64,000 bases of DNA. Origin: Bacteroidota bacterium (lineage in GTDB: Bacteria; Bacteroidota; Bacteroidia; 2-12-FULL-35-15). The stretch spans positions 185,231-249,230 of the forward strand of contig JAZKDU010000004.1 in assembly GCA_040387415.1 (NCBI GenBank). The letters are read 5' to 3'. The translations under genes were made by a program, and so were the position numbers. Below the pieces are notes generated by a model, which made no database searches, had not been told where the DNA came from, and saw nothing but the letters and a program-made list of their open reading frames with translations. Positions 11,034 through 53,100 of the stretch are shown here, one piece after another (position 1 is the first letter of the stretch; every line of letters begins with the position of its first letter).

Positions 11034-11180
11034 AAGGAGTTGTAGCACGTTTCGTTTATCGATTTTTCATGAAGAAAATACCTGATTCGAATATTTAAAA
11101 TGCAACCAAATTTTAATTTATAGTGTCTTGTATTTTATGGAGCGTTGGTTGTTCCATGTTTATCTGGCAAAACAGCAAGC

Positions 11181-35454: not shown

Positions 35455-37008
35455 TTATTTGGCCTTCATTCTGATGGCATGTGAAACTTCATACGATTCA
35501 TTACTCGCGTTAGGAGTAAAATCTTCCGTATAGGTTTCATAACCAGGGTTTTCTGCAGTAATTACGTAGTGTTTGCCTGGAGTTAGAATGAACAAGTACT
35601 TTCCTGTAGTCGCATTGGGCAGGTAAGTACCGATTAATTTTCCGGTTTCTTTTTCCGCAATGTTAATATTTACAGTCGTATAGTTATTTTGAGTCCCAGT
35701 GTTCTGCAGTACTACTCCACCTTTAACAAGCACGCTAACAGCATCTTGCGATTTATTTAAGAGTTCATATTGCTTTTTAAGAGCCTTTTGTGTTACATCA
35801 TCCGAAAAATCGCTGTCGAGGAAGGATGCTATTTCATTACGAAGTGCCTGAATATCATCTTGCGAAGAATTAGGATCATCAAACATCACCTCGATTTTTT
35901 TGAGCAGCTGCTGAAAAAGCAAATTATTCAATTTAGGATTGATTTGCGGAACATCGCTTTTTAAGCCCTGTTTTTTCATGCGCTCTTCCAGTTCCTTTAT
36001 TTTTTTCTCAGTTTCTCCTACCTGTGCCTGTAAATTGTCCAGTAACTCTTCATAATCAGCATTTCCCTGCTGTGCTGCAGGCACAGAATCAGTATAGTTT
36101 TTAGATTTTTTATTTTCGCCAAATTTAAAATTGATCATCAGTTCATGGCTGGTACCGGCATAAGTACCAATCGGTCCAATAATAAAGTCATAGGAGTAAC
36201 CCAGGTACAATTGTTTGTGAATACAGAATCCGGCATGAGCCGCTACAGCGTAACCGCTCTTATAGGTTGCTCCCAGCCAGAATTTATCTTTCCAATCCAC
36301 ATTAAGCGTTCCATCATATTGAAAAGGAGTATTCGGCACAAAACGAACCAAAGCCTGTGGCACAATGGAAATACCCTTGTCTTCCACAATGTAAAACCTG
36401 TATTTGGCGGTGGCCATATAATGACGAGCCATCGCATAGTAACCGCGTATGTTGGTGTTATCAACGTAATTGATCTTGTTTTGCAGTAGTTGCGGCACCG
36501 CAGCCCCAATCTCTAAGTTGTTCCATACAAAACCAATTCCGGCCGATCCGTCAAAGGTGGTTTTGCGCTGCAGATCAGTAAACAGGTTAGGGTCTGTATT
36601 GTTTTCAACAAGGGTTTTAGAGAAATCAAGCGTTTGGTTAATAATACCGGCAGATACTCCAAACAGCACATGCATATCGTTATTGATTGTAATCCGGTAG
36701 GAATAGGACAGATTGCCGGAAGTTCTGTTGGTAATCCCTTTTCTATCGCTGATAAGGCTAATGCCCAAACCCACTTTTTTTTCTACCAGGCTGCCATCCA
36801 GTGTAAGTATCGTCAGTTTTGGAGCTCCTTTAAAATCGGTCCATTGGTTGCGGTTGACCAGCATTGCATTTGTAGCCCCTTCCGAACCTGTAAAAGCCGG
36901 ATTATAGATCATCGGCTTATAAAAATAATGGCTATACATCCCTATTTGCTGGGCAGGAGCAATTAGTGCAGATAAAACAATGGATAATATGATAAGCCCT
37001 TTCTTCAT
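35455..37008 (-). CDS. PorP/SprF-family type IX secretion membrane protein with a long C-terminal extension (517 aa)
   Basis: N-terminus MKKGLIILSIVLSALIAPAQQIGMYSHYFYKPMIYNPAFTG...NRNQWTDFKGAP is the PorP/SprF family signature. About 200 extra C-terminal residues include a coiled-coil and Lys-rich segment and a beta-rich domain. Confidence 0.75.
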   Translation of the reverse strand: MKKGLIILSIVLSALIAPAQQIGMYSHYFYKPMIYNPAFTGSEGATNAMLVNRNQWTDFKGAPKLTILTLDGSLVEKKVGLGISLISDRKGITNRTSGNLSYSYRITINNDMHVLFGVSAGIINQTLDFSKTLVENNTDPNLFTDLQRKTTFDGSAGIGFVWNNLEIGAAVPQLLQNKINYVDNTNIRGYYAMARHYMATAKYRFYIVEDKGISIVPQALVRFVPNTPFQYDGTLNVDWKDKFWLGATYKSGYAVAAHAGFCIHKQLYLGYSYDFIIGPIGTYAGTSHELMINFKFGENKKSKNYTDSVPAAQQGNADYEELLDNLQAQVGETEKKIKELEERMKKQGLKSDVPQINPKLNNLLFQQLLKKIEVMFDDPNSSQDDIQALRNEIASFLDSDFSDDVTQKALKKQYELLNKSQDAVSVLVKGGVVLQNTGTQNNYTTVNINIAEKETGKLIGTYLPNATTGKYLFILTPGKHYVITAENPGYETYTEDFTPNASNESYEVSHAIRMKAK

Positions 37009-37232
37009 TCTTTTAAATAAACAGGTAGGCGGTGTAAAGCTTTAATATTCAGACTCAGCTAGCTATGCAATTTAATTCTCCAATTTACTTCTGGCCGTCC
37101 AGAGCGCTTTTCGCGATCGAAGCAAACTTTTTTTTGCTACTGTGAGATTGCTTCGCCCTATCTGCGAAGAGGGCTCGCAATTACGTTTTAATCAGCATTT
37201 ATTTAAATACCTTAAAATCGTCCCTTAAACGC

Positions 37233-38657
37233 TTATTCAATCAGCTTTAGCACCCAGGCATTACTGCTGTCCTTTGAATTCAATTCTTTAGCTTTTTCAA
37301 GCGCTTCCTCTTTTGTTTCTAGTTTTTCTGCAAAAACATAATTGTTTTGTTTGGATTGCGAATAGATCCAGTTGGCATTAGCGAAACCACGCTTGTTGTA
37401 ATTTTTAACCTCATCAATCGCAAAATCACGGTAAAAAAAGATCCCTACAATCACATAAAAACCTTTATCAGGCATAATATCCTTGTTGTTCTTAAAATCA
37501 CTTCTTTTGGTGATGAATATCCCTTCGCTGTCCTCTGTGCCTGGCTTGGTATTCTGAACAGGAGCTATTGCCTGGGTGGTGTTTTGTTTGTCCAGCTTAT
37601 CATTCAGTTCTTTGAGCTTTTCCTGGTTCTTTTTAAGCTGATTTTCAAGCTTATCAAATCGCTGCTCATACGCGGTGTTTTCCATCTCAGGAAGCGTATC
37701 TACAGGAGCGTTTGTAGATACGGAGGCACTTTTTCTGCCGAGTATTTTAAAGTTCACCATTATTTCGTGGCTCACACCGGCATATTTACCAATACTCCCG
37801 ATAATAAAATCATACGAATAGCCCAGATACAGCTGTTTGTGTACACAAAAACCAATATTTGCCGCTACCGCATAATTGCTTTTATAAGTGGCCCCCACCC
37901 AGCCTTTATCCTGCCAGTCGAGGTTAACAGCTACATCGTATTGCAGGGGAGCTTGCGGTACTATGCGGACCTGTGCAAATGGTTTTATCGAAATATCTTT
38001 ATCTTCTATAATAACAAATTTATAGTTTACAGATGCCATGTAATGCCGCTTTTGGCTGTAGTAGGCTTTTGCATCGCTGCTGTCTGCATAATCAACCGAT
38101 TTCACTTTGGTTTCAATCAATTGAGGAGCGGAAACACCTATATTTAAATCTTTCCAGGAAAACACCAACCCTGCATTTACGTCAAAAGTGGTTTTATGCT
38201 GATAGTCCGTGTACAAGGTTGGATCTGCGGCATTTTCAACTTGGGCCCTGGAAAAATCAATGGTTTGGTCAATAATACCGAAGGACGCTCCTAAGGATAA
38301 GCGCATATCCTCGTTTAATTTCAAATGGTAGGAATAATACATGTTTCCACCCATCCGGCTCATCAGGCCCTTTCTGTCGCTGATCAAACCCAAACCAACA
38401 CCCACTTTTTTATCCATCAAACTGCCATCAGCTGTAAAAATGGTTAATTGTGGCGCGCCTTTAAAACCTGTCCATTGCGAACGGCTGATCAGCATGGCAT
38501 TAGCAGCATCGTCAGTTCCGGTAAAAGCAGGGTTAAATACCAGTGGCTTGTAAAAACTATGGTTGTACATACCTACCTGTTGGGCAAAAGCCCCCTTCCA
38601 GCCTTCCCCGAAGAGAAGAAATAAAACAAAAGATAGTATGATTAACCTTTTTCTCAT
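37233..38657 (-). CDS. PorP/SprF-family type IX secretion membrane protein, tandem paralog with a C-terminal SPOR-like domain
   Basis: N-terminus ...AQQVGMYNHSFYKPLVFNPAFTGTDDAANAMLISRSQWTGFKGAP. About 45% identical to the downstream paralog over the core. The C-terminal about 90 aa (FYVIVGIFFYRDFAIDEV...NAWVLKL) are SPOR-like. Confidence 0.8.
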   Translation of the reverse strand: MRKRLIILSFVLFLLFGEGWKGAFAQQVGMYNHSFYKPLVFNPAFTGTDDAANAMLISRSQWTGFKGAPQLTIFTADGSLMDKKVGVGLGLISDRKGLMSRMGGNMYYSYHLKLNEDMRLSLGASFGIIDQTIDFSRAQVENAADPTLYTDYQHKTTFDVNAGLVFSWKDLNIGVSAPQLIETKVKSVDYADSSDAKAYYSQKRHYMASVNYKFVIIEDKDISIKPFAQVRIVPQAPLQYDVAVNLDWQDKGWVGATYKSNYAVAANIGFCVHKQLYLGYSYDFIIGSIGKYAGVSHEIMVNFKILGRKSASVSTNAPVDTLPEMENTAYEQRFDKLENQLKKNQEKLKELNDKLDKQNTTQAIAPVQNTKPGTEDSEGIFITKRSDFKNNKDIMPDKGFYVIVGIFFYRDFAIDEVKNYNKRGFANANWIYSQSKQNNYVFAEKLETKEEALEKAKELNSKDSSNAWVLKLIE

Positions 38658-38792
38658 CGTACTTGCGCAGATTTGAGATATGAGATTTGAGTATTGAGAT
38701 AATATAAATTGTAATTCGTTTCCATATAATTCATCTTGTTGTAGATCTGGGTATTAAAGGCTGTTCTCACGTCTCATATCCCACATCTAACT

Positions 38793-40166
38793 CTACTTAT
38801 TCTTCAAAATCTCCAGTGATCCCTTCACTACAATATCCGTTTCGTCAAAGCGAAGTACGTAAAAGTAGGTGCCATCAGGTAAATCAGAACCGTTGTATGT
38901 ACCGCTCCAATCGTTGGTATATCCTTTTTTGGTATATACCTGGTTGCCGTAAATGTTGTATATAAACACCTCATTATCAGGGTAGCTTAAGATGTCTTGT
39001 ATGTACCAGGTATCGTTAATACCGTCTCCGTTAGGGGTAAACAGGTTAGAAACCATTCCATTAAATTCCAGTACAAAAATGGTGATCAGCACACTGTCAG
39101 TAGTAACGCAGGAATTATTATCCGTTACAGTAATGGTATACTGCGTGGTGACTAAGGGGGTGGCCAAAGGGTTAAAAATAGTAGCAGTGTCAAGTCCTGT
39201 TGCGGGTGTCCATACAGCGGTTCCATTCCCTGTTCCCATCAAGGAAAGGGAAGTTCCCTGCACCACCGTAGTGTCAGCAATTGTACTTATTGGATTAGGG
39301 ATTATGGATAAAATAGCCGGAGTGGAAGTATCGCTGGGACAGGCACCGTTTTGTACAATTGCCTGGTACCATGTGGTTTGCGTTAGCCCGCTGTAGGTTT
39401 GGAATGTGGTATCATTGGTAATCGGAGTCCATAAAATACTGTCCGTTGACGATAGCCAGCTTTGCACATCTCCAAGCTCTCCCGTTAAATTGAGCGTGCC
39501 GCTATTGATACCGGTACATACGGTATCTGTGCCGGAAACCATGCCTGCAACTGATACGGAATCGTAAGTGAAAGAAGCGATGGAAGAAGTATCCGAAGGG
39601 CAGGTAGCACCGCTTTGCACAATGGCTCTGTAATAGGTGTTTTGAGTAAGATTAGCGTGGTTGAGTGTATGGTTGGTATCCGATATCGTATTCCAGGTTC
39701 CCCCGGGAATAGAATCCTGCCAAAAAAGTACACTTCCTGTATCAGCTACCAGCGTGAGCACTCCCGTTCCTGTTCCTGGTGTAATGCAAAAAACTCCTCC
39801 TCCGGTAATAGTTCCCCCTATGCTTGGTGGATAAATATCAATGCAGGACGTAGAGGATGCAGCTTCAGGGAAAGCGCCATCTTTAACAATGGCTCTGTAA
39901 CAGGTGGATTGCGGAAGGTTTGTATAGCTAACTGAGGGTGAAATGTTAAAGAGGGGTAACCAATTGCTGCCTCCATCTGTTGAATAGTCCCAACGTATAA
40001 TTGCACCATTACTTGTAGTCGTATCTAAATTTATAAAGCCGGAATTAGCATTAGCACAGTATATTGCTGCACCAGAGGTAAATCCACCAATAGATTGCGC
40101 CTGAACTTTTCCAAACGTTAAACAGATAATTATAAAAAACAGAAGTTTTTTGGAAAAACACTTCAT
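38793..40166 (-). CDS. secreted Ig-like repeat protein with a T9SS type-B (gliding-motility) C-terminal domain, cognate-cargo candidate for the adjacent PorP/SprF. Start trimmed to MKCFSKKLLFF.
   Basis: Signal peptide MKCFSKKLLFFIIICLTFGKVQAQ. Internal ~85-aa repeats (...TYYRAIV..GA.P.D.S...). C-terminus NLFTPNGDGINDTWYIQDI...IYNIYGNQVY...WSG.YNG...PDGTYFYVLRF matches type-B CTD. Confidence 0.75.
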   Translation of the reverse strand: MKCFSKKLLFFIIICLTFGKVQAQSIGGFTSGAAIYCANANSGFINLDTTTSNGAIIRWDYSTDGGSNWLPLFNISPSVSYTNLPQSTCYRAIVKDGAFPEAASSTSCIDIYPPSIGGTITGGGVFCITPGTGTGVLTLVADTGSVLFWQDSIPGGTWNTISDTNHTLNHANLTQNTYYRAIVQSGATCPSDTSSIASFTYDSVSVAGMVSGTDTVCTGINSGTLNLTGELGDVQSWLSSTDSILWTPITNDTTFQTYSGLTQTTWYQAIVQNGACPSDTSTPAILSIIPNPISTIADTTVVQGTSLSLMGTGNGTAVWTPATGLDTATIFNPLATPLVTTQYTITVTDNNSCVTTDSVLITIFVLEFNGMVSNLFTPNGDGINDTWYIQDILSYPDNEVFIYNIYGNQVYTKKGYTNDWSGTYNGSDLPDGTYFYVLRFDETDIVVKGSLEILKNK

Positions 40167-40531
40167 AAACAAGTCAGTTAAATATATCGAAGCCATGCTT
40201 CAATCGCAAAACTATAAAAAAATCCGGTTTTTTTAGTGTTATAATTGCCCGATCTTCAAAAATAACAGCAACAATGAGCAAACACTCTCAAACCTAAACG
40301 AATTTTGTCAATATTAGTTCGGAAATAGAATGTTTTAATGAGAAAGGAATAAGGCTCTGTTTTATTGGCAGTAAGGGGTTTTTTTGCAAAAAAATCCGGT
40401 TATCGTTCTCGTAATTGGCAGAATAGATCAGAAACAGCTTAGAAAAAGGAAAAATCAGCTATTTTGAAAGGATTTTAAGTGTTTTTAGTTCAAAAAACCT
40501 CTTAAACGGTGTTATAAAACTATTTTTTGCT

Positions 40532-41233
40532 TTAAAAGATCCCAGCAATGCCAAAATTCGGGTAAAAACGATTGTCGTAATGCACTACACTGGTTTCGAG
40601 GTAAAGGTGGCGATAACGCATTCCTAATGATACGATAGGGCTGTATACCTTTAAATTGGTACTATAAGCCCGGGTGGTATATTTTTTAATTTCGATATTG
40701 GTATAACTGTAACGCGGGGTAAGGATCAGCATAAAATCTTTATTGAACTTATAGGAAATTGGTATAAAAAAATCTGCATTGTATGCGAGCTTGGATTCAA
40801 CACTTACAGCGGTTTGATTTCCAAAAATGCGTATTGAATCCCGGGCTGTTACAAAGCCAAGATCTACCCCAATAGCGGCATTGAATTTAGAGGTACGATC
40901 GAAAAATCCATACTGAGTTCCGGCACGCAGTCCAAAACCTCCGATAAACCCCGGCAAATGACCGGCAATTCTTACATTCATGTGTTCACCCAAACCTATT
41001 TGGCCGCCAAAGGACAAAATGGGCGCAGCTTCAATTTTATTGGAAAAATTTATCTTTTTATCTGCTGAAATAGAATCAATTTTTGGTTTCAATCCGGTTC
41101 CCAGGCCCACATAAGCTTTTCCTTTCCCTTTTATCATGGGAGTAGGATCATTTACATACAAATTGTTAGTGACCATGCAGGATGATAAAAATCCAAAAAC
41201 TGATAAAAGAAAAATGATGCTTTTAAGTTTCAT
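40532..41233 (-). CDS. putative outer-membrane beta-barrel lipoprotein, hypothetical
   Basis: Lipoprotein-type signal FLSSC. Alternating amphipathic beta-strand pattern and a C-terminal aromatic residue (...GIAGIF). Confidence 0.45.
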   Translation of the reverse strand: MKLKSIIFLLSVFGFLSSCMVTNNLYVNDPTPMIKGKGKAYVGLGTGLKPKIDSISADKKINFSNKIEAAPILSFGGQIGLGEHMNVRIAGHLPGFIGGFGLRAGTQYGFFDRTSKFNAAIGVDLGFVTARDSIRIFGNQTAVSVESKLAYNADFFIPISYKFNKDFMLILTPRYSYTNIEIKKYTTRAYSTNLKVYSPIVSLGMRYRHLYLETSVVHYDNRFYPNFGIAGIF

Positions 41234-41271
41234 AAAAGGTATTTATTTGATTTTCGGTTTAAAAATAGAAG

Positions 41272-41318
41272 CAAAAAGCCGTTTCAATACGATATTGAAA
41301 ACGGCTTTTTTGTTTTTC
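41272..41318 (-). terminator. long hairpin with a flanking T/A run between the FadL-like gene and the small outer-membrane protein gene
   Basis: aaagccgtttcaata-cga-tattgaaaacggcttt (15-16 bp stem), followed by ttttgttttt on + and preceded by its complement on -. Confidence 0.5.
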
Positions 41319-41325
41319 GAACCAA

Positions 41326-42768
41326 CTAGAATTTGGTGCCCAGGGTCAGCATAAAGCTTGAATTTCTATAATTGTTCTTTACAGAAGAAACATAGGAAGG
41401 ATCATACAAATAATTATATTCTGTATACTGGGTAAGCACATAAGCGAAATCAATAAAATAATTGTTTTCTCTGAACCCTACACCAAGCGTATAGCTTGAT
41501 CTGTTTGCATTCACATTTTCGTCATTTTTGAATGGGCTGCCATATAAGGCATAACCTGCTCTGAAGCTGAATGGATCAAATCGTACTTCACCACCTACTC
41601 TTAAGTTTCCGGCTGAGGTGTATTTTGAACGTATTGTTCTGTTTACAGGTGAAAACACATTAGGGCTTGAATTCAGCTGAGCGTAGGTATAATCCACATA
41701 TTCATAATCCACATTCAATAAAGCTATTTTCCCAATTACAAACCCTAAACTTCCTATTGCTCTAAACGGAGTAGTGATACGGTAGTCGAAAGATCCTTTC
41801 GGAGATATAGTATCGTAGCTTACACCTTCCAGATCCGATTTCATGGAACTGGAGTATTTATCGTTAAAACCAATGCTGGTAGGTGTATGCACAGCAGCTC
41901 CTATTCTCAACCATTCCGTTGGTTTTACGATGGCACCAAATTTCATGTTTACTCCGCTTCCTTTTGCAGTAAGATCCTGCGTGTAGGTAAAGGATTTGAA
42001 GTTTGAAATGGAGTCATTTGCGTCTATTTCCTCATAAACGGATTCCTCCACATATCTTGCATTTACAAAGCCGATGGTAGCTCCTACAAATAGCTTATTA
42101 CGATAGTTTCCGCCAAAGCTTACTACTGTTTCACCCATAGAACCTCTTGTTTCCACCGATTTGCGCTGCTGCTGGCCATAACCCGCCACCACGTGATTAT
42201 ACAGGTTTGTTCCATTGGTATCCGGATTAATCAGATACGTTTCCCAGGCTAAACCGGTCGAAAACTGGTCGAAGCTGGAGGGGGCATTTCCATTTGCGCT
42301 GGCAACATAGGTATCAAGCAGAGAGCTTGTTGCATTATCGCCCTCTACGCTCATCCGGTTATGGAAATTATTTGTTCTGTTGTAACCAAGTCCGAAATTT
42401 ACTGTTTCCCAGCCTCTTGTACTTTTGTCACCTCTGTTCCAGGTAGCGACCAAACCGATGTTCCCGAAATTGAAATTCAGCTTTCTGTCGCTGGATTCTA
42501 TGCTATTAAAAGTAGATGTTGTGCTTTGCGAAAAAATGGAAGGTGTTATGGAAATTTCGTTTTTACGAAACACCCCTATACCAGCCGGATTAAAGCTCAG
42601 TGTTGAAATATCACCACCCAAAGCGCCCATAGAGCCTGCCATAGAAGCGAAACGTGCTGTACCGCCAAAGGTTAATTGTGAGTAACGCATTGCGTCAATA
42701 TCATTTTGAGCGGTTATTGTAAGGGCATAAAGCAACCCTGTCCCTATTAGTAAGGCTTGTTTTTTCAT
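41326..42768 (-). CDS. FadL/OmpP1/TodX-family outer-membrane transport protein. Start trimmed to MKKQALLIG; the ORF track gives ..43053.
   Basis: Signal peptide MKKQALLIGTGLLYALTITAQ. The N-terminal hatch motif SQLTFGGTARFASMAGSMGALGGDISTLSFNPAGIG resembles the FadL-family G.G.A..G.AA..DD.S...NPA consensus. C-terminal F (...LGTKF). The 95-aa upstream extension overlaps the preceding gene and was rejected. Confidence 0.55.
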   Translation of the reverse strand: MKKQALLIGTGLLYALTITAQNDIDAMRYSQLTFGGTARFASMAGSMGALGGDISTLSFNPAGIGVFRKNEISITPSIFSQSTTSTFNSIESSDRKLNFNFGNIGLVATWNRGDKSTRGWETVNFGLGYNRTNNFHNRMSVEGDNATSSLLDTYVASANGNAPSSFDQFSTGLAWETYLINPDTNGTNLYNHVVAGYGQQQRKSVETRGSMGETVVSFGGNYRNKLFVGATIGFVNARYVEESVYEEIDANDSISNFKSFTYTQDLTAKGSGVNMKFGAIVKPTEWLRIGAAVHTPTSIGFNDKYSSSMKSDLEGVSYDTISPKGSFDYRITTPFRAIGSLGFVIGKIALLNVDYEYVDYTYAQLNSSPNVFSPVNRTIRSKYTSAGNLRVGGEVRFDPFSFRAGYALYGSPFKNDENVNANRSSYTLGVGFRENNYFIDFAYVLTQYTEYNYLYDPSYVSSVKNNYRNSSFMLTLGTKF

Positions 42769-42847
42769 ATGTATGGTTTTTATGAATTTTTGATAAAGCG
42801 TGCATTCAGAAATACTGGTTTTAATATCATCTGAATGCACACAAAAT

Positions 42848-44395
42848 TTATCTTCTTGGTCCTGATCCGTTATTTGAATTGCTCCTTTGAGGAGGTGCGC
42901 TTTGAGAAGGTGCCTGTTGAGGTGCACTGTTTCTTTGTTCCATTCTAGGCTGTTCATTGCGCGGCTGCTCATTTCTAGGGGCTGCCTGCTCGCGTTTAGG
43001 CTGTTGCTGCTCTTGTTTAGGTTGTTGTTCGTATTTAGGCTGCTGCGACTCACGTTTCGGCTGTTGTTGTTGTTGTTGTTGTTGTCTGTTTTGGTCGTAG
43101 TTTGGTTGTTGTTGCTTTACCGGTTGTTCAGTACGGGTTCTAACATCATTACTAGGCTTTGATTCTCCCGGTTTTGTTGTTGTATTCACTGGTCTGTCAT
43201 AAGCAGGCGCATTCTCTCTTGGCTTAGCTGTATTAGTATTGTTAAGCGGAGCAGGTCTGTTATTTTCTTTTGAATCAAACTTTTCCGTACCATTATTTTC
43301 TCTTGGTTTAGCAGTATTGTTGTTAAGCGGAGCAGGTCTGTTATTTTCTTTTGAATCAAACTTAGTTTCCGAACCGTTGTTTCTTGCAGGGTTACCACGT
43401 TCTGCAGGGCTTGAAGTGTTTTCCGGTCTTGCTTTTACATCGTTTTCACGCGATATATACGGGTTGTTGGTTCTTCCTTTGGTTGCTTCAAAAGGCTGTT
43501 TTGTTTCAGTTTCAACCGCTCTAATGTATTTGTGAGCTAATGTAGGCTGCGCAGTAGTACGTCCGTTTGAAGCAGTTGTACCTCTTGGACCATAATAGTA
43601 GCTGTTGTTATCATAGCTGTTAAAATAATTATTTGAATTTGCATCATAATACCCGTTGTTGTAACCATTCATATATCCCTGGTTATAAGCGTTTCCGTAA
43701 CCGTTCATGTAGGGGTTATATCCATAATAGCTGGAACCATAATAACCTCCGCCATATCCACCATACGGATTATAACTGTATGGAGTGTAAAAAGGATCGT
43801 ATCCCCAACCCTGGTTAGCATACCAGTACGAAGTAGGGTTATACGTAAATGTGGTATACGTTGGTCCCCAGAAATTGTATCCCATATAAACGCTTGTTCC
43901 GTAAGTATACGGGTTACCAGTATACCAGTAGGAGTTGGTGTAATAGTTATCGTAATAACCATACGAACCAACGTTGTTATGGAAACGTCTTAAACGTACT
44001 GAATATTCATCATCATAATAATCGTTATAGTCAAATGGCTGATCATAATAATTATTGGTAGTGTTGTTTATAGTAGTACCGTTACCATCAGTAGTCGTCT
44101 GGGTAGTGGTGGTAGACCTTGTTTCACTAGGCGTATAATAATCGTCCCCCGTAGTGGTTGTTTGTGACGATTGGTTTTTAGCCTGCTCCTGTCTTTGTCT
44201 TTCCTGTTCCGCTAATTGTTGTTGCCTTTCCTGTTCAGCCGCTAATCTGCGTTTTTCTTTATCTGCAGCAGCATCACTGGATGTATAATAAACATCATCA
44301 CTATACGTTTTGGATGTTGTAGTTCCCTGCTGCGATTTACATGATACCGATAACAAAGAAGTTGCAACTGCTAATGTGATTAAGGCCGTTTTCAT
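42848..44395 (-). CDS. extremely low-complexity lipoprotein: a Tyr/Gly/Asn-rich (about 35% Tyr) central domain followed by a Gln/Pro/Glu-rich repeat tail
   Basis: Lipoprotein signal MKTALITLAVATSLLSVSC. A coiled ERQQQLAEQERQRQEQ segment. About 150 aa of ...YGYYDNYYTNSYWYTGNPYTYG...YGGYGGGYYGSSYYGYNPYMNGYGNAYNQGY... A 2x 28-aa repeat E.KFDSKENNRPAPLNN.NTAKPREN. A QQQQQQQQ run and a PKxEQQ repeat tail. Confidence 0.6.
   Translation of the reverse strand: MKTALITLAVATSLLSVSCKSQQGTTTSKTYSDDVYYTSSDAAADKEKRRLAAEQERQQQLAEQERQRQEQAKNQSSQTTTTGDDYYTPSETRSTTTTQTTTDGNGTTINNTTNNYYDQPFDYNDYYDDEYSVRLRRFHNNVGSYGYYDNYYTNSYWYTGNPYTYGTSVYMGYNFWGPTYTTFTYNPTSYWYANQGWGYDPFYTPYSYNPYGGYGGGYYGSSYYGYNPYMNGYGNAYNQGYMNGYNNGYYDANSNNYFNSYDNNSYYYGPRGTTASNGRTTAQPTLAHKYIRAVETETKQPFEATKGRTNNPYISRENDVKARPENTSSPAERGNPARNNGSETKFDSKENNRPAPLNNNTAKPRENNGTEKFDSKENNRPAPLNNTNTAKPRENAPAYDRPVNTTTKPGESKPSNDVRTRTEQPVKQQQPNYDQNRQQQQQQQQPKRESQQPKYEQQPKQEQQQPKREQAAPRNEQPRNEQPRMEQRNSAPQQAPSQSAPPQRSNSNNGSGPRR
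43217..43385. repeat. 2x 84-bp direct tandem repeat (coding) plus an adjacent (TTG)7/(CAA)7 microsatellite at 43064..43084
   Basis: tcttggyttagcwgtattrktrttgttaagcggagcaggtctgttattttcttttgaatcaaactt is repeated with few mismatches. ttgttgttgttgttgttgttg encodes polyQ on the minus strand. Confidence 0.75.
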
Positions 44396-44514
44396 TGTGT
44401 TGTATTTTTAGTTTCTTTTAATTTGACAAATACTTCGGCAAAAGGTTTAATTTTTTACTTTTGTTGTATAAGTCAAACGTAAAATTACAAATACTATACC
44501 ACAAATTAAAAAGT

Positions 44515-45987
44515 ATGAGCAAAGAAATCCCATCACGCGACAAAAATTACTCTGAATGGTACAATGAATTGGTTATAAAGGCAGACTTAGCAGAGCATTC
44601 AGCGGTAAAGGGTTGTATGGTAATAAAACCTTACGGATATGCAATTTGGGAGAAAATGCAGCAGGCTTTAGATAAAATGTTCAAAGATACAGGCCATGTA
44701 AATGCTTATTTTCCATTGTTTATTCCAAAATCGTTTTTTAGTAAGGAAGCAAGCCACGTAGAAGGTTTCGCAAAGGAATGTGCTGTGGTTACTCATTATC
44801 GCTTAAAGACTGCGCCAGATGGCAGTATTGTAGTGGATGAAACAGCCAAGCTGGAAGAAGAATTAATTGTAAGGCCTACCTCGGAAACCATTATATGGAA
44901 CACCTACAAAGGCTGGATTCAATCGTATCGTGATTTACCAATATTAGTGAACCAATGGGCGAACGTAGTACGCTGGGAGATGCGTACGCGTTTATTCTTA
45001 AGAACTACTGAGTTTTTATGGCAGGAGGGGCATACCGCTCATGCAACGGCACAGGAGGCGATTGCTGAAACAGAGCAAATGCTGGAAGTGTATGCTGAAT
45101 TTGCAGAAAAATGGATGGCAATGCCGGTTATTAAAGGTATAAAAACCCCTAATGAGCGTTTTGCAGGTGCTTTGGAAACATATTGTATTGAGAGTATGAT
45201 GCAGGATGGAAAAGCATTGCAGGCAGGTACCTCACACTTTTTAGGTCAGAATTTCGCGAAAGCGTTTGATGTAAAATTTGCTAATAAGGAAGGCAAGCAG
45301 GATTTTGTTTGGGCTACGTCCTGGGGTGTTTCCACTCGTTTAATGGGAGCTTTGGTGATGTCGCATTCAGATGATAAAGGATTGGTGCTGCCACCTAAAT
45401 TAGCGCCTTTCCAGGTAGTTATTGTTCCTATTTATAAAGGGGATGAACAGCTTGCTCAAATCAGCGAGGTGGTTCTGAAAATGAAAAAAGAAATGGAAGC
45501 GAAAGGGATCTCTGTAAAGTATGATAACAGGGATACGCAGCGTCCGGGCTGGAAATTTGCAGAATACGAATTAAAAGGTGTTCCTGTGCGTATTGCAATA
45601 GGAGCGAGGGATTTGGAGAATGGAACCGTAGAAGTGGCACGCAGAGATACTTTAGAGAAAGAAACGCTTCAGCAGGCAGACTTAGCAACCAAAATTGAGC
45701 ATTTATTGGAGCAGATACAGGATAACTTATATCAAAAAGCCATTGCCATGCGTGAAGCAAAAACCTTCAATGCGGATACGTATGCTGAATTTAAAGAAAT
45801 ACTGGATGCAACACCGGGCTTTATTATGGCGCATTGGGATGGAACAAGTGAAACGGAACAAAAAATAAAAGAGGAAACAAAAGCAACCATTCGTTGTATT
45901 CCATTAAATAATAAGGAGGAAGCCGGGGTTTGTATTTATTCAGGTAAGCCATCTGCACAGCGTGTTGTTTTTGCAAGATCATATTAG
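44515..45987 (+). CDS. proS: proline--tRNA ligase, archaeal/eukaryotic-like type found in Bacteroidota. Start trimmed to [10 protein letters not shown].
   Basis: [27 protein letters not shown]... the class II aaRS core, and the C-terminal Zn-binding-like ending. About 490 aa. Confidence 0.9.
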
Positions 45988-46162: not shown

Positions 46163-46855
46163 ATGGATAAACCGTCATCACACGATCTTATTATAAAAAC
46201 GCTTAAGGAGAAGTCTGTTATGAAGCAGGATGTTTATGATAAAACATTCCAGGCTTTTAAGAGCATGAAAGCGACAGCGAAACAGATGGTGGCCGATTTT
46301 AAAAGTGAAATAGCAGCCGTTGACAAACGCATTGTTCTGGAATACAGGGATAAAGGAGAATTTGAGTTTGAATTAAGGGTAGCAGGCGATTTACTGATCT
46401 TTGCCATGCATACCAATGTTTTTGAATTTGATAAGGCTCACCAGGTTTGGAAAAGTTCTTATGTTAAGGAGGATCATGCCCGTTCTTTTTGCGGAATTAT
46501 TAATATTTATAACTTTTTAAATGATTCTTTTACCTATAACAGGATCAATGATTTGGGTTATGTGATTGGAAGAGTGTTTGTTAACAAAGAAAATCATTAT
46601 TTTATTGAGGGTAAGCGTCAGCTTGGTTTCTTATATAATGATTTTGTTCATGCCGTAATGGATGAGGCAGCAATTAAGGCCATATTGGAGTCAACTATTT
46701 TGTATTGTCTTAATTTTGACCTCTTTACGCCTCCGTTTGATACGATAAAGGAGGTTTCTGTATCAGATATGCAGGCGGCAAGTGAGAACATGCAAATAAA
46801 AACTGGAAAGCGCCTGGGATTCCGTTTTCAGGTGGATAGTGACGAAATTGATTGA
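46163..46855 (+). CDS. hypothetical protein (230 aa), no recognisable domain
   Basis: Clean ORF with typical codon usage between proS and tRNA-Glu. No motifs recognised. Confidence 0.45.
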   Translation: MDKPSSHDLIIKTLKEKSVMKQDVYDKTFQAFKSMKATAKQMVADFKSEIAAVDKRIVLEYRDKGEFEFELRVAGDLLIFAMHTNVFEFDKAHQVWKSSYVKEDHARSFCGIINIYNFLNDSFTYNRINDLGYVIGRVFVNKENHYFIEGKRQLGFLYNDFVHAVMDEAAIKAILESTILYCLNFDLFTPPFDTIKEVSVSDMQAASENMQIKTGKRLGFRFQVDSDEID

Positions 46856-48185: not shown

Positions 48186-50165
48186 TTATCTTTTTTTATA
48201 CTTGTTTTTTACTTTATTTACCCCTGTTTTTATTTTTTTACAATTGGTTAATTGCTTTTTGTTGGCCGCTTTCAGGGCTTTAAAATGCCTTGTGGTGTAA
48301 CTGCTCCTTACTAAGAACATCTGGGTTTCAATCTGTTTCTCATTCACGTACGCAGCCTCTTCTTTATGGGTGCGTTTCACCTGCTTTTTGCATAACTTTT
48401 GTACACGCTTAAATTTTTTGCGGAGCATACTTTTTTCAGTAAGTTCGGTATATTCCTTTAATTCTTTTTCATACAGACTTTTATTATTCTCGTATGGCCT
48501 TGAGAAATCGTTTCCGGTTAAACATGCTTTTTTTAGTTTTATATACTCATCGGAAACAGCCTGATGATACATATAAAGATCATCAAAGGCTTTTTTTAAT
48601 TCAATTAAGTGATTGTAAAAAACAGTAATGATAAATCCCTGGTTTCGCTCTATTAGCAGGGAGTCATCATCAAATTTTTCTTCCATTAAATCATCTTTTT
48701 CTTTTCTGATGTTATAATCAAGATCATCTTCGTAGGATATTCGGGCGGTGTACAGTATTTCAGCAATATTTTTATTGAATTTTGAACATAGTGAATAGGC
48801 CCTGATCCTTTTAGAACAGAAGGTATACAGGCTGTCCAGTTCTTTAAATTTTCTGGTGATTTTAATTTCGGTTTTTTTGATGGAATCATGCAGGGTCTCC
48901 ACTTTTTGAGCAGAGGCAACGGAGTCTGCATAGTTACTTTTGGGTGAGTATTTTGACTCATAGAATTTTTTATCATCCTGAATCCGTTTTAACTGAGTTC
49001 TGCTTCCCTTCAAGATTCTTTTAGGCACTCGTTTTCCAACAGCACATAATTTTTTACCTGCCGCCAGGTTATTGGCAGCAACCTTTGTGGACATGATCAG
49101 GCGCTGGTTTTCTGCTGTAAGAATGTTTTTTTTCTTCTCGCTGTTTTTTAGCTGTTCTGTTTTTTGAACCGATAAAAAATACGAATTGCTGTCGAAATGC
49201 ATTGTTGCCTGGCTTACTACAAATTCAATTGTATCCAGCTGTCTTAGCAAGGCAATTGTATCAGTCGTTTGAAGATTAAGCGTTTTAAAATCAATAGTGG
49301 CAAGCTGTTCATAGCTTTTTCCTATAGAAAACTGATTCTTGTGATTGTAATAATAACAACGGAAGCCGTCAGAAATAATCCTGGGCTCGGGCCTTAGATA
49401 AACAATCCGCATTCGGTCGTCCTGCCTGTTATCATTAAAGATTGAATAAGATTCATCATATATACCCAGATAATATGAATTATCTGCTTCTGCCTGTTCA
49501 ATGGTTCTTTCGGTGTTTGTCAGCTGCCATAGCGGATCCGCAGGTATATGGTCGGTTTTGAAAAAATTGCCGGTTCTATACAAGTAGGTGTCATGAGGAG
49601 AGCTTATAAAATGAGGTTTGTATTTTATTCGGTCGGAATTACCAAGTGTTAGAATGTGAATGACCCAGCCCCATAAAGTACGTTTGCTGTATTTAAAATA
49701 TCCCGCATCCCAGCTGACATCTAACAGTTTCCATTGGTCATCAATGTATACAGCATTCCATTCATGTTCGTCAATATAAAATTTATCTTTCCAGTCAATA
49801 TTTTTATTTTTTACATAACCGGGTATAGTAACGGATTTGATGTTAGCACTTTTACAAAGCTGATTAAAAAGCTCGCTGTATCCTATGGATGTTGCTTTAC
49901 GTTTGCGTAATATCTTTTTTGCCGGCAGGCGGGTGTTATCAAAGGCGAGATATTTTTTTACATCATACTTAATGTTATGGGCCATCCAGCTGTGGATAGC
50001 ATATACTTTTGCACTGTCGGTACTGAGGTGATCTGTAAGGCGATAGGCTAAGGTATGCGTTTCTAATGCCCAGAAATAGGGCACAAATTTATGACCTTTT
50101 GTTTTTTGTGAAAACCCGTTTGAGATTGAAAAGGAGGAAAGAATGATTAAAAAAAATGAGCGCAT
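48186..50165 (-). CDS. secreted transglutaminase-like domain protein with a Cys-to-Ser substitution at the canonical nucleophile position and a long Lys-rich coiled-coil C-terminus. Start chosen at MRSFFLII; an alternative start is 50183.
   Basis: Signal peptide MRSFFLIILSSFSISNGFSQ. The transglutaminase-like core KATSIGYSELFNQLCKSANIKSVTIPGYV ... HEWNAVYIDDQWKLLDVSWD follows the G.C..YA.LF...R..GIP.R.V.G / H.W.EVY...W...D pattern, but with Ser in place of the catalytic Cys. The C-terminal 350 aa are K/E-rich helical. Confidence 0.5.
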   Translation of the reverse strand: MRSFFLIILSSFSISNGFSQKTKGHKFVPYFWALETHTLAYRLTDHLSTDSAKVYAIHSWMAHNIKYDVKKYLAFDNTRLPAKKILRKRKATSIGYSELFNQLCKSANIKSVTIPGYVKNKNIDWKDKFYIDEHEWNAVYIDDQWKLLDVSWDAGYFKYSKRTLWGWVIHILTLGNSDRIKYKPHFISSPHDTYLYRTGNFFKTDHIPADPLWQLTNTERTIEQAEADNSYYLGIYDESYSIFNDNRQDDRMRIVYLRPEPRIISDGFRCYYYNHKNQFSIGKSYEQLATIDFKTLNLQTTDTIALLRQLDTIEFVVSQATMHFDSNSYFLSVQKTEQLKNSEKKKNILTAENQRLIMSTKVAANNLAAGKKLCAVGKRVPKRILKGSRTQLKRIQDDKKFYESKYSPKSNYADSVASAQKVETLHDSIKKTEIKITRKFKELDSLYTFCSKRIRAYSLCSKFNKNIAEILYTARISYEDDLDYNIRKEKDDLMEEKFDDDSLLIERNQGFIITVFYNHLIELKKAFDDLYMYHQAVSDEYIKLKKACLTGNDFSRPYENNKSLYEKELKEYTELTEKSMLRKKFKRVQKLCKKQVKRTHKEEAAYVNEKQIETQMFLVRSSYTTRHFKALKAANKKQLTNCKKIKTGVNKVKNKYKKR

Positions 50166-50176
50166 AGCTGTCAGCC

Positions 50177-53100
50177 TTAACATTCCAGCACCCTTTCTTC
50201 TTCAATATAAACAATTAATTTTTCGGTAACGCTATATCCCATTTGATTTAACAAATCGGCATACTGAAGTATTTGTTTTTTATGTGCAGGCTTTTCCTCA
50301 CCGGTTTTATAATCAATGATGATTGCTGTTAATTCCCCCGGCCCCTTTTGTAAGGGGGAGTTAAGCACTACCCGGTCCAAACGGAATTTTTCACCTGTTA
50401 ATGCAATTATTTCAGCTTCATTTTTTATAGTTAATCCCGGAGCGAAATGGGGCTGTAATTTTGGTAACGCAATAATTTTGTGGATTACAATCAGCAGTTT
50501 ATCTTTTTCATCCGCGGTTATCATTCCTTGTGCAAACATTGAATGCAGGGCAGTGTCTACATCCTCAGCTGATTTTATTTTTGATAATGCGGTGTGCACC
50601 ATCACCCCGTATTCTTTTTTACGCTCCGTGTTTTCAAGATTCCAGATACTTGGAGCTGCGGCCCGCATTTTAATATTGTCGCGCCATTGGTTGGAATTAA
50701 AGGTTTCCAGCTTAAGATTAGTTGTTTCTGCTTTTTGTGTATGTTGTTTGTGTATAGTTTCAGTACCAAATGCGTAAAGCGTTTTACCCTCCTGCCATTC
50801 ACCATTCATCTGATAGTAATGAGCGAACATATCGCTTGTAGTGCCTAATTTATCAGTTGACCGGGATGGCTTGCCTGTAAGTATATACAAGCGTTCTTCC
50901 GGTCGTGTAAGGGCAACATATAAAACATTTAAAGAGTCTAAAAAAGATTTACTTTTTTCCTCTTCGTACAAAGAGGCGTAGGGTGTATCCATCAGGCTTT
51001 CACTCACAGAAACCAATGCGGAAGGCATTTGTGGGATTTTTTCATTTTCAAGATCCACCCACAAATGTTCTTTTCCATTTTTCACCTTTCCGTTGGAAAA
51101 TGGTAAAATCACCACCGGAAATTCGAGTCCCTTGGATCTATGGATGGTCATGATGGTAACGGCATTCATACCTTGAGGAACAATCAGTGATGCCCTGTCC
51201 TTTTTGTCTTCCCAATATTCTATAAAGTCGTTTAGATTGTTGTTTTGCTTAATAGAATAATTTAACACTTCATCCAGAAAGAACTGGATATAGGCATTTG
51301 GGATGATATTTAGTTTGAATAAACGTATCAGCTCTTCACACAGTTCATACAAAGCCATCTTGGAAAGTGCGCTGCTGCTGAAATCGCTGCACACGTGTTT
51401 AATAACGGAAATAAAATCCTGTTTGCTTTCAACTAATAGTTGATTGATGTTGATTTCGGAATTTCCATTCGCAGTGGGGCTTGTACGGTTTTTGTCTTTA
51501 TTGTTTATATGTTCGTTAATACGTTTTGAAACGACCAGGTATTCCAGTATTTCGGCCTGAATTATTTCATCGCTTGTGTTGTTTAAATACCGCAATATGG
51601 AATAAATAAAATTTACATCCGCTGAATTGCTTAATAATAGTGAATCAGAGGAGATTACTTCAATTCCCCGGCTGGATAAATAATTGGCAATTTCACTGCC
51701 GTCTGTATTTTTGCGTACTAAAACAGCGATGTCTCTGAGTTGAAAATTTTGTTGTAAAAGGTTCTGAACAATGCTGTAAGTGCGTTCCAGGTTTTGTTCC
51801 CTCAGCTCATCTTTTTCCCCATCCAGAAATTCTACCTGTACATACCCGCCTGTGTTATCAGGGTTAAAGCCTTGTTCCAGGGTTTCATAAATACCTTTGA
51901 ACTTATCATTCAGTTTATTGGAAAGGGTTCTGAAAATAGCATTATTGAACTCAATTATTTCGCGTTTGCTGCGGTAATTTTTATCCAGTACCTGTGGGTT
52001 GTGATTGCGCTTTAATGCCTGTTCCCGCTCCAATACCAGGGGATTGTTGTTGTGAGCGAAAACTCCGGGTAACATTGCAAACTGTTCTACTTCACCGCCA
52101 CGCCAGCGATATATGGCCTGTTTGCCATCACCCACCAGCATTGTGAAATGCCCTGTTGCAAGGGAGTTGTCAATTAACGGAAGTAGATTTTGGAATTGTA
52201 AAACAGAGGTATCCTGAAATTCATCAATCAGATAATTATTATATTTTTCGCCTAAGCGCTCATAAATAAAGGGAATGGGCTCATTAAGCACAATTTTTGC
52301 AATCAGTTTATTAAATTCAGAAATGTGCAAAATGTTATTCTGTGCTTTGTATTCGTTGAGTAATTTTTCAATTTCATTCAATACAGCTAATGAATAAATA
52401 GTGGTATTGATTAACCGGAATAAGGTTATTTCCGATTGATTCAACTGCATGTATTCCTGCGCCTCATTAAACAATCGTGTTAGTGGAAGTTTAATCGCGT
52501 CAATGCTTCCTTTATCACCAATGGTGGCTTTTCCGGCATACCAGTTATCCGAATCAATGTTTTTTTGAACGGTATTGGATGGGGTTAGTTTATCGAAGCG
52601 GAATTCAGCGAGGTAGCTGAAGTATTTAGAAATTCCATTTGCACCACCAGCAAATTTTTCATTCTCTACACCCGAATCACTGATTATTTTTAAGGCATCC
52701 TGCCCCTGTTTTTTTATAAACGTTTCAAACTTTTTTATTTCTGTTTGTATCGTATCTTTTATTTTAAAAAAATCATCAACGCTTAAATGCCTTAGTTTTT
52801 CTATATATACAGCACCATCTTCGTTTAACAGGTTTTTAGCAAAATATTTTAAATCGTTTTCAATGTGCCAGCTTTTTTCATCATCTGTTTTGCTTTCTGT
52901 AAATTCAACCAGCGCTTTTGTCAGGCGCTCGTCTGTTCCAATCTGCGCTATTAACAGGTCAATAGCTTGTGTCAGCAGTTTGTCGTCATCCATTTCCAGA
53001 TCAAAGCTCATTGGGATTTTCAGGTCAAATGCAAAGGTGCGTACAATCTTATGCACAAAGCTGTCGATGGTTCCAATTGCAAAATCAGAATAGTTATGTA

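Follow-up and report, generated by a model that had tools for sequence, protein, structure and literature searches.

A tyrosine-rich lipoprotein family paired with a FadL-type outer membrane barrel in uncultured Bacteroidia

Why would a bacterium keep a gene for an exceptionally tyrosine-rich lipoprotein next to one for a FadL-type barrel? The question is raised by a locus in a 64,000-nt stretch of the genome of a Bacteroidota bacterium (GenBank assembly GCA_040387415.1, contig JAZKDU010000004.1), hereafter the window, whose positions serve as coordinates throughout. The locus, 40532-44395, holds three co-directional open reading frames (ORFs), as reported in a preliminary description made from the sequence alone, and all are on the minus strand: gene 1 (42848-44395), an ORF for a predicted tyrosine-rich and mostly disordered outer membrane (OM) lipoprotein of 515 aa that belongs to an undescribed family; gene 2 (41326-42768), for a 480-aa OM barrel of the FadL superfamily; and gene 3 (40532-41233), for a 233-aa predicted lipoprotein that is possibly a small OM barrel. 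Features of the locus given below are on the minus strand unless marked otherwise. The best reading of our analyses is that genes 1 and 2 are a vertically inherited two-gene OM module in a clade of uncultured Bacteroidia, and that gene 3 forms a separate unit outside this conserved module.

The association of genes 1 and 2 is highly conserved. We sampled 80 loci from other species, 76 of which extend far enough past gene 1 to be informative, and in all 76 gene 2 lies next to gene 1 on the same strand; the four exceptions stop at a contig edge. Given this synteny and the numbers of homologues (253 for gene 1 in a large protein database, thousands for gene 2), a chance association of the two genes is excluded, and the lipoprotein gene followed by a FadL-family barrel gene, first pointed out in the preliminary description, is a conserved pair. 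The gene for prolyl-tRNA synthetase (proS; 44512-45987, plus strand) is the divergent neighbor of gene 1 and is conserved with the pair, being found upstream in all but one of the loci with upstream sequence, at 66-92% identity. On a 4.5-Mb metagenome contig (L082, Ga0590898_0013) the order radC-rpsT-ORF-proS, followed by divergent gene 1-gene 2, is kept, with Pfam domains on its proS. Downstream of gene 2, the loci have convergent housekeeping genes that vary by lineage, and no conserved third gene was found 3' of gene 2 across them. Distances of the gene 1 core and of gene 2 are also correlated when proS distances are taken into account (partial Mantel r = 0.63, permutation p <= 0.001). We consider it highly probable that genes 1 and 2 form a functional two-gene unit.

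Genes 1 and 2 are probably co-transcribed, and of 66 loci, 43 have a spacer shorter than 50 nt between them. The remaining 23 have a spacer of 58-185 nt that holds a long, nearly perfect hairpin whose sequence is not conserved and which is followed by a T-run in some loci (L020, L027, L048, and L052); the intercistronic hairpin of the window lies at 42798-42842 (-23.3 kcal/mol, z -6.15). These hairpins suggest that the expression ratio of gene 1 to gene 2 is tuned lineage by lineage. The start of gene 2 is the ATG at 42768 (MKKQALL...), a start conserved across all homologues, and a 575-aa GTG-start ORF (41326-43053) in the mechanical ORF list, which adds 95 codons and overlaps gene 1, is over-extended. 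An apparent fusion of genes 1 and 2 in one scaffold (L057, 3974-6796, 940 aa) is an artefact of a run of N in a scaffold gap, which appears as XX in the translation.

The three genes had been proposed to form an operon, and this proposal fails at gene 3. A terminator-like hairpin (41273-41310; -17.5 kcal/mol, z -4.0) with a U-rich tail, UUUUUGCUUCUAUUUU, stands right after gene 2, and gene 3 follows gene 2 in only two (L002 and L007) of the roughly 60 other loci with enough sequence. In L005, the closest of the relatives that lie on a long contig, the three CHU_C/SprF genes that follow gene 3 in the window come directly after gene 2, with no gene 3 between. Conservation of the trio in other genomes thus holds for genes 1 and 2 and breaks down for gene 3, whose own family is tiny: when 1.84 billion representatives were searched exhaustively with HMMER, only 63 clusters were found. 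Gene 3 is a separate, narrow-family lipoprotein and an unrelated neighbor. A scan for sigma-70 promoters and terminators, in which the Bacteroidetes promoter types were outside the scope, yielded no sites above shuffled sequences.

By sequence comparison, gene 1 represents a real, conserved, and undescribed family. It has no match in Pfam or NCBIfam, and searches of all PDB sequences with the single sequence and with a profile (E <= 10) returned only compositional matches (histone H1 and ribosomal S21, E > 0.1); together with the protein database searches, these results place it in no known family. The 253 homologues retrieved with the window protein became 312 when one distant member was the query. 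Save for two evidently automatic labels, the homologues are named 'hypothetical protein' and come from metagenome-assembled genomes (MAGs) of Bacteroidia or Bacteroidota, and no precomputed Pfam domain is present on any listed match. When one genome per GTDB species was scanned, relatives were found in at least 407 species, the 80 best all being MAGs. Carrier MAGs come from freshwater and soil samples. The exact gene 2 protein of the window is present in a public collection (P0121, NCBI MAG locus tag V4608_04240); a gene 1 query of the same protein database returned no identical sequence, the best match being 50% identical, possibly because the gene escaped calling, was filtered out, or eluded a word index on account of its composition.

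The central part of gene 1 is conserved by position. Over 107 gap-free core columns, 59 orthologues share a mean pairwise identity of 64% (minimum 40%) versus the 13.5% that composition predicts, and the identity of the tail in the orthologue alignment is 29%. With p-distances of 0.36 for the gene 1 core, 0.54 for the gene 2 barrel, and 0.22 for proS, the core is more conserved than the barrel; over their full lengths, close relatives are only 40-53% identical in gene 1 and 65-79% in gene 2. This conserved core is not foldable in isolation by AlphaFold2 (AF2): the model built from a 121-sequence alignment has a mean predicted local distance difference test (pLDDT) score of 53.5, with values below 50 for nearly all of residues 126-281 (126-139, 141-156, 165-173, and 178-281), and is confident only for a helix at 39-79, a small hairpin near residues 100-110, and a helix at 286-298. 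Comparison of core segments with hhalign gave scores of 6.5-11.4, within the range of column-shuffled controls (6.9-13.5), and we therefore reject an NPY/YG repeat or solenoid, for which there is no signal above these controls and no solenoid in the AF2 model. A curli- or Fap-type amyloid is rejected on the same two observations and on the lack of a CsgG/FapF-like partner in the Pfam search.

Gene 1 can be divided into a series of parts. The N-terminus, MKTALITLAVATSLLSVSC, is a predicted signal peptide with a lipobox (residues 1-19, LLSVSC, 44339-44395), the cysteine of which, Cys19, is near-invariant, being kept in 58 of 59 orthologues; gene 3 is predicted to be a lipoprotein from the same two features. 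Downstream of this cysteine, a tether of 10-14 residues ends in a family motif, DD[V/I]Y[Y]; in the window it is DDVYY (44285-44299), of which D33, D34, and Y36 are invariant, and the Cys-to-DD offset falls within 10-14 residues (mode 13) in 57 of 58 orthologues. A charged, E/R/K/Q-rich helix follows (residues 39-79, 44159-44281; pLDDT up to 94) that has the look of a spacer rod and is variable or absent in distant homologues, the region being a charged or Thr/Asn-rich spacer across the family. The first conserved core block is aromatic and acidic (residues 115-198, 43802-44053), with the pattern NNYY..DYNDYYDDEYxxRLRRF..GYYDNYYTNSYWYxxNPYxYGTSVYMGYNFWGP..YNP..GWG in the window protein and the family consensus NNYY..F.YDDYYD.EY..RLRRF..GYYDNYYTNSYWY..NPY.YG.S.Y.GY..WGP.Y..Y.P....GWG; its invariant residues run from F121, D125, Y126, Y127, D128, Y131, R134, R137, F138, Y147, Y148, Y152, T153, and N154 to W176, P187, and G196. 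A Y/G/N-rich linker (residues 199-254, 43634-43801), which keeps its composition in the alignment while its length and sequence vary, leads to a second core block (residues 255-272, NNYFNSYDNNSYYYGPR, 43580-43633) with the consensus N.YFNSYD.NSYYYGPR and with Y257, N259, D262, P270, and R271 invariant. After a short, semi-conserved helix (residues 286-298, PTLAHKYIRAVETE, 43502-43540; pLDDT 80-90) comes a Pro/Gln/Asn/Lys-rich tail (42851-43501) that is predicted to be disordered (pLDDT ~45-55) and ends in a conserved arginine (PRR). Tails of the orthologues are 156-358 aa long, with a median proline content of 13% and a median net charge of +9.5, and the terminal residue is arginine in 57 of 59.

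Compositional statistics bear out an unusual tyrosine-rich lipoprotein, with headline figures that are peak values. Tyrosine makes up 10.5% of the whole protein, 28% of residues 119-268, and 30% of the richest 100 aa; 34-37% is reached only in windows of 30-50 aa, so that the description of gene 1 as a 35%-tyrosine lipoprotein is correct for such windows and not for the protein. The quoted peptide from the YGNSTP-rich center is found in gene 1, where these six residues account for 76% of the central 150 aa; residues 201-250 contain 34% Y, 24% G, and 16% N, and residues 199-268 are rich in Y, G, N, and S and nearly free of charged and aliphatic residues. A resemblance to prion-like low-complexity domains, also suggested, fits the composition of residues 199-254 and does not fit the flanking blocks, whose conservation by position, at the identity given above, means that the core behaves as a specific domain and not as mere low complexity. 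In the tail, the polyQ tract is present as 8 Q (residues 438-445), whereas the supposed exact 28-aa repeats prove to be a tandem duplication of 81 nt, or 27 aa (43211-43363; Tandem Repeats Finder: period 81, 1.9 copies, 91% matches at the DNA level), in which the longest exactly repeated peptide is 15 aa. Some homologues (P0105, P0115) have His-rich insertions in the Y/G linker, with GGHHGYY repeated and HHHHH runs, and these sequences hint at metal binding or pH-dependent behavior. O-glycosylation motifs are often present on surface or periplasmic proteins of Bacteroidota; the motif D-(S/T)-(A/I/L/V/M/T) is absent from gene 1 of the window and occurs at two sites in gene 2.

Profile matches and the structural model together assign gene 2 to the FadL superfamily, in which it is predicted to be a new and well-separated clade. 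It passes the cut-off of Pfam PF03349 (Toluene_X) marginally, with 31.0 bits against 29.7 (residues 26-448), and the same domain is precomputed on most of its homologues. The AF2 model (pLDDT 83.7, predicted template modeling score 0.78) has 14-15 strands by DSSP, and its 27 best PDB matches in Foldseek are all of the FadL fold (FadL, TodX, TbuX, CymD, and BamG; E 1e-11 to 1e-16, 11-16% identity), including BamG of F. johnsoniae, P. gingivalis, and B. thetaiotaomicron and FadL of E. coli and P. aeruginosa. When 29 diverse orthologues were combined into a profile, a PDB search detected TbuX (3bry, E 3e-4) and, at E 1e-3, P. aeruginosa FadL (3dwo), and no BamG chain even at E <= 10. Solved FadL/TodX members are monomeric 14-strand beta-barrels with an N-terminal hatch as plug. 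In gene 2 the hatch (residues 21-70, 42559-42708) is the most conserved segment, with a conservation of 0.73 versus 0.53 overall; it contains the NPA motif N60-P61-A62 (42583-42591), N60, P61, A62, and G63 are invariant in the alignment, and NPAG is found in 57 of 59 orthologues. The C-terminal residue is aromatic. Counted from the sequence, the N-terminus exceeds that of E. coli FadL by about seven residues. AF2 leaves its conserved tip (residues 21-32) unplaced, and the invariant Q21 after the signal peptide is consistent with the N-terminal Gln rule of Bacteroidetes. The assignment to the FadL/TodX family made in the preliminary description is supported, and the transport of hydrophobic substrates that went with it would be expected from family membership only.

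How far does gene 2 depart from the classical channels? Its Pfam score, family-profile matches, NPA hatch, and C-terminal aromatic residue are those of FadL, TodX, and TbuX, and the modeled barrel superposes on FadL/TodX structures at E 1e-13 to 1e-16. It differs in its low identity (11-16%), in being ~30-70 residues longer than the solved homologues, in the longer N-terminus with its unplaced tip, and in always being paired with a dedicated lipoprotein gene; we know of no dedicated lipoprotein partner for the classical FadL channels.

On the basis of these observations, we propose a model in which gene 2 would be a FadL-type barrel with a plug domain that keeps its NPA motif, and gene 1, when alone, a mostly disordered OM lipoprotein. 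From its N-terminus, gene 1 would comprise a lipid anchor, the fixed-length DDVYY tether, a variable spacer, the aromatic/acidic block, the Y/G/N linker, the second block, and the basic Pro-rich tail. Order in the tether and the aromatic block would arise only through docking on or in the gene 2 barrel, and the linker and tail would stay flexible. A segment that is conserved and yet unfoldable in isolation resembles one that folds on a partner. The default location of gene 1 in this model would be the periplasmic face of the OM because the lipoprotein export signal of Bacteroidota, taken as two or more acidic residues among the six that follow the Cys (PMC12578637), is carried by none of 58 orthologues. 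The absence of this signal weakens the surface-adhesive idea raised in the preliminary description, although gene 1 may have a dedicated route. Contact between the two proteins, their sidedness, and any transport or tethering role are inferences.

That the two products make a physical barrel-lipoprotein complex in which gene 1 folds on binding is a tentative proposal, to which we give somewhat less than an even chance, and any particular biochemical role for the pair is far less probable than that. The points that we count for the complex, whose logic parallels that of other barrel-lipoprotein pairs in Bacteroidota, are the pairing in 76 of 76 loci with mostly short spacers, the positional constraint on the aromatic block together with its low pLDDT, the fixed Cys-DDVYY spacing, the absent export signal, the unplaced tip of gene 2, and the correlated divergence, the last of which supports it weakly given that shared ancestry inflates a mirror-tree signal. 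Several observations weigh against it. The low pLDDT of gene 1 could reflect a shallow alignment or a permanently disordered state. The mirror-tree correlation is inflated by distance saturation as well as by shared ancestry. The strong hairpin between the genes in 23 of 66 loci, sometimes with a T-run, suggests unequal expression and not a 1:1 stoichiometry. The invariant NPA hatch suggests that gene 2 may work by itself as a conventional FadL-type transporter, and the absence of a canonical export signal is not proof that gene 1 is periplasmic.

Could the barrel instead, along the lines of the preliminary description, be a dedicated translocon or anchor that threads an unfolded gene 1 to the cell surface, where its Tyr/Gly/Asn-rich and basic Pro-rich regions would serve as a coat, adhesive, or matrix? 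According to the AF2 model gene 1 is almost wholly unfolded and hence threadable; in a third of lineages, the hairpins or terminators that separate the genes would lead to an excess of gene 1 over gene 2, like that of a cargo over its machine; and the net-positive tail could bind anionic surface polymers. In the same phylum, a flexible Tyr/Gly/Asn-rich loop is found on the cell-surface side of BamA (PMC12578637), and laterally opening 14-stranded barrels have been discussed for surface-lipoprotein biogenesis (PMC12611786). However, the export signal is absent from all 58 orthologues, the hatch is intact with its NPA motif and is the most conserved part of gene 2, and gene 1 of the window is without O-glycosylation motifs. 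Moreover, to our knowledge no member of the FadL family translocates protein. We regard export or display by gene 2 as unlikely.

Likewise unlikely, in our judgment, is that the genes are co-regulated neighbors with independent functions, gene 2 being a conventional FadL-type channel for hydrophobic compounds and gene 1 a periplasmic envelope tether or spacer that would run from its OM lipid anchor, with the aromatic block on a glycan or membrane interface, to peptidoglycan or the inner membrane, which the basic tail with its terminal Arg would reach. Several features speak for such an arrangement: the gene 2 profile matches the proteobacterial transporters TbuX and PaFadL and not BamG, with NPA invariant; gene 1 combines the absence of an export signal with a Pro-rich tail of 156-358 aa that ends in Arg in 57 of 59 orthologues; and the pair is located among housekeeping genes. 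Nevertheless, adjacency in 76 of 76 loci across deep divergence (proS identity down to 66%), together with correlated rates, exceeds what is expected for unrelated neighbors, and gene 1 contains no peptidoglycan-binding domain known to Pfam or NCBIfam. Nor can the terminal Arg replace the lysine of Braun lipoprotein, which is joined to peptidoglycan through an Lpp-type link between Lys and meso-diaminopimelate that Arg is unable to form.

A further reading is that the invariant Tyr/Trp block is a new type of module, a 'sticky' envelope domain without order of its own that a FadL-type barrel clamps or lets pass through it, after which the module is displayed, or nucleates a Tyr-rich condensate or matrix, at the OM of Bacteroidia. 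We think this quite unlikely; if it were true, a FadL-family barrel would be a protein-handling device and not a small-molecule channel.

The closest precedent for the gene arrangement lies in the Bacteroidota beta-barrel assembly machinery (BAM), in which BamG-BamH and BamG2-BamH2 each consist of a FadL-fold barrel and an OM lipoprotein and the genes for BamH2 and BamG2 are in a putative operon (PMC12611786, PMC12578637). We considered whether genes 1 and 2 are a divergent accessory unit of this kind, given the same gene logic of a lipoprotein gene beside that of a FadL-like barrel (PMC12578637), the best Foldseek match of gene 2, which is F. johnsoniae BamG (9n2d_B, E 2.3e-16), and its N-terminus, which extends ~7 residues beyond that of E. 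coli FadL. BamG, a partner of BamA and BamH, has a conserved N-terminal extension of ~10-12 residues; in gene 2 the tip is conserved, with an invariant Q21 that the N-terminal Gln rule would also explain. Such kinship is very unlikely, and both sequence and the character of gene 1 lead us to reject a BamG/BamH paralogue pair. There is no detectable sequence relationship of either gene to BamG or BamH: the gene 2 profile finds TbuX and PaFadL and not BamG (E <= 10), and gene 2 is no closer to BamG than to E. coli FadL, with 13% identity in both cases. BamH is a surface lipoprotein that folds into two domains and bears an export signal, unlike gene 1, which is Tyr-rich, is predicted to be disordered, lacks the signal borne by BamH-K, and resembles no solved chain, BamH included. 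Finally, the gene 1/2 family is limited to a subclade, while BamG/H are phylum-wide (PMC12611786).

That the Tyr-rich stretch is a mis-called ORF, or no more than a fast-evolving region of biased, low-complexity or prion-like composition, and has no specific function is in our view extremely improbable, and for the core blocks we reject it. Residues 199-254 do vary in length and sequence with their Y/G/N composition kept, and internal repeat structure is not significant. However, the flanking blocks are conserved by position in 59-121 orthologues and include non-aromatic invariants (R134, R137, T153, N154, P162, S168, P187, D262, P270, and R271), the lipobox is conserved, and the gene is present in at least 407 species genomes.

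With the alternatives so ordered, the two-gene OM module remains our preferred reading, and it fits a known theme of barrel-lipoprotein modules in Bacteroidota with a partner family, that of gene 1, which is undescribed. That FadL-fold barrels in Bacteroidota have non-transport roles has itself come to light only recently, through BamG, and the pair would be a second, unrelated case in which a FadL-like barrel goes together with a lipoprotein dedicated to it. Gene 1 has a core of ~30% Tyr that is more conserved than the barrel beside it and not foldable by AF2, and this core would be a natural example of a position-constrained 'low-complexity' domain. To prion-like or FUS-type domains and Tyr-rich structural proteins, residues 199-268 are similar in composition only; gene 1 differs from them in the positional conservation of the blocks on either side of its linker and in being a predicted lipid-anchored protein of the bacterial envelope. 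The pair could also help to explain the recurrence of flexible Tyr/Gly/Asn-rich segments in the Bacteroidota envelope, such as extracellular loop 3 of BamA, which has 12-13 Tyr in 38-39 residues, is enriched in Gly and Asn, and is flexible, without density in electron cryo-microscopy (PMC12578637). Gene 1 shares with this loop its Tyr/Gly/Asn composition, phylum, and membrane; it differs in being a lipoprotein domain rather than a barrel loop and in having position-specific blocks with Trp, Asp, and Arg, and there is no sequence match. In the literature, we found no description of a Tyr-rich or disordered lipoprotein with FadL in Bacteroidetes, the only relevant work being that on BAM (PMC12611786, PMC12578637). 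The practical weight of the pair is limited, as all listed matches are from uncultured MAGs.

Gene 3 has the lipobox FLSSC, with S18 nearly invariant and C19 invariant in its family, which also keeps an N-terminal VTNNLYVNDP motif and a hydrophobic or aromatic C-terminus; the window protein ends in Phe. Nothing usable was found for it in Pfam or NCBIfam, and in the PDB only a signal-peptide match to SprE. Matches to barrel families are all sub-threshold, both for the window protein (DUF5777, E 0.079; OmpW, E 0.6) and among 33 family members (OMP_b-brl in one, TonB_dep_Rec_b-barrel in three). A small OM barrel, as stated in the preliminary description, is possible on these weak matches, and the terminal Phe is consistent with it.

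Downstream of gene 3, at 35455-40196 (minus strand), Pfam and NCBIfam models identify a type IX secretion system (T9SS) cargo gene with a CHU_C (type B) domain and then two PorP/SprF paralogues, both extended at the C-terminus by a long stretch to which SPOR and CarboxypepD_reg match weakly. Gene 2 is of the same superfamily as PorV and PorQ, the FadL-like shuttle barrels of the T9SS, and has such cargo and PorP/SprF genes close by in the window. We nevertheless reject a PorV identity for gene 2, which scores 29.5 bits against a cut-off of 90 for NCBIfam PorV_fam (NF033709) and matches 8gl6_F in Foldseek at only E 2e-5 (TM-score 0.34-0.43); the T9SS neighbors of the window locus are not conserved at other loci. 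Three further T9SS cargo genes lie elsewhere in the window: 1248-10883 (plus strand) encodes 3211 aa with PKD and CHU_C sorting domains, 11145-19193 (plus strand) encodes 2682 aa with at least seven PKD domains and CHU_C, and 21434-27916 (minus strand) encodes 2160 aa with a beta-helix and Por_Secre_tail. On the other side of the locus, a 230-aa ORF at 46163-46855 (plus strand), between proS and rpsT, has no Pfam match, and the metagenome contig L082 has an equally long ORF in the corresponding place. At 48186-50183 (minus strand), a protein of 665 aa has a transglutaminase-like core at its N-terminus; its C-terminal half is long and Lys/Glu-rich, with a weak CHASE3 match.

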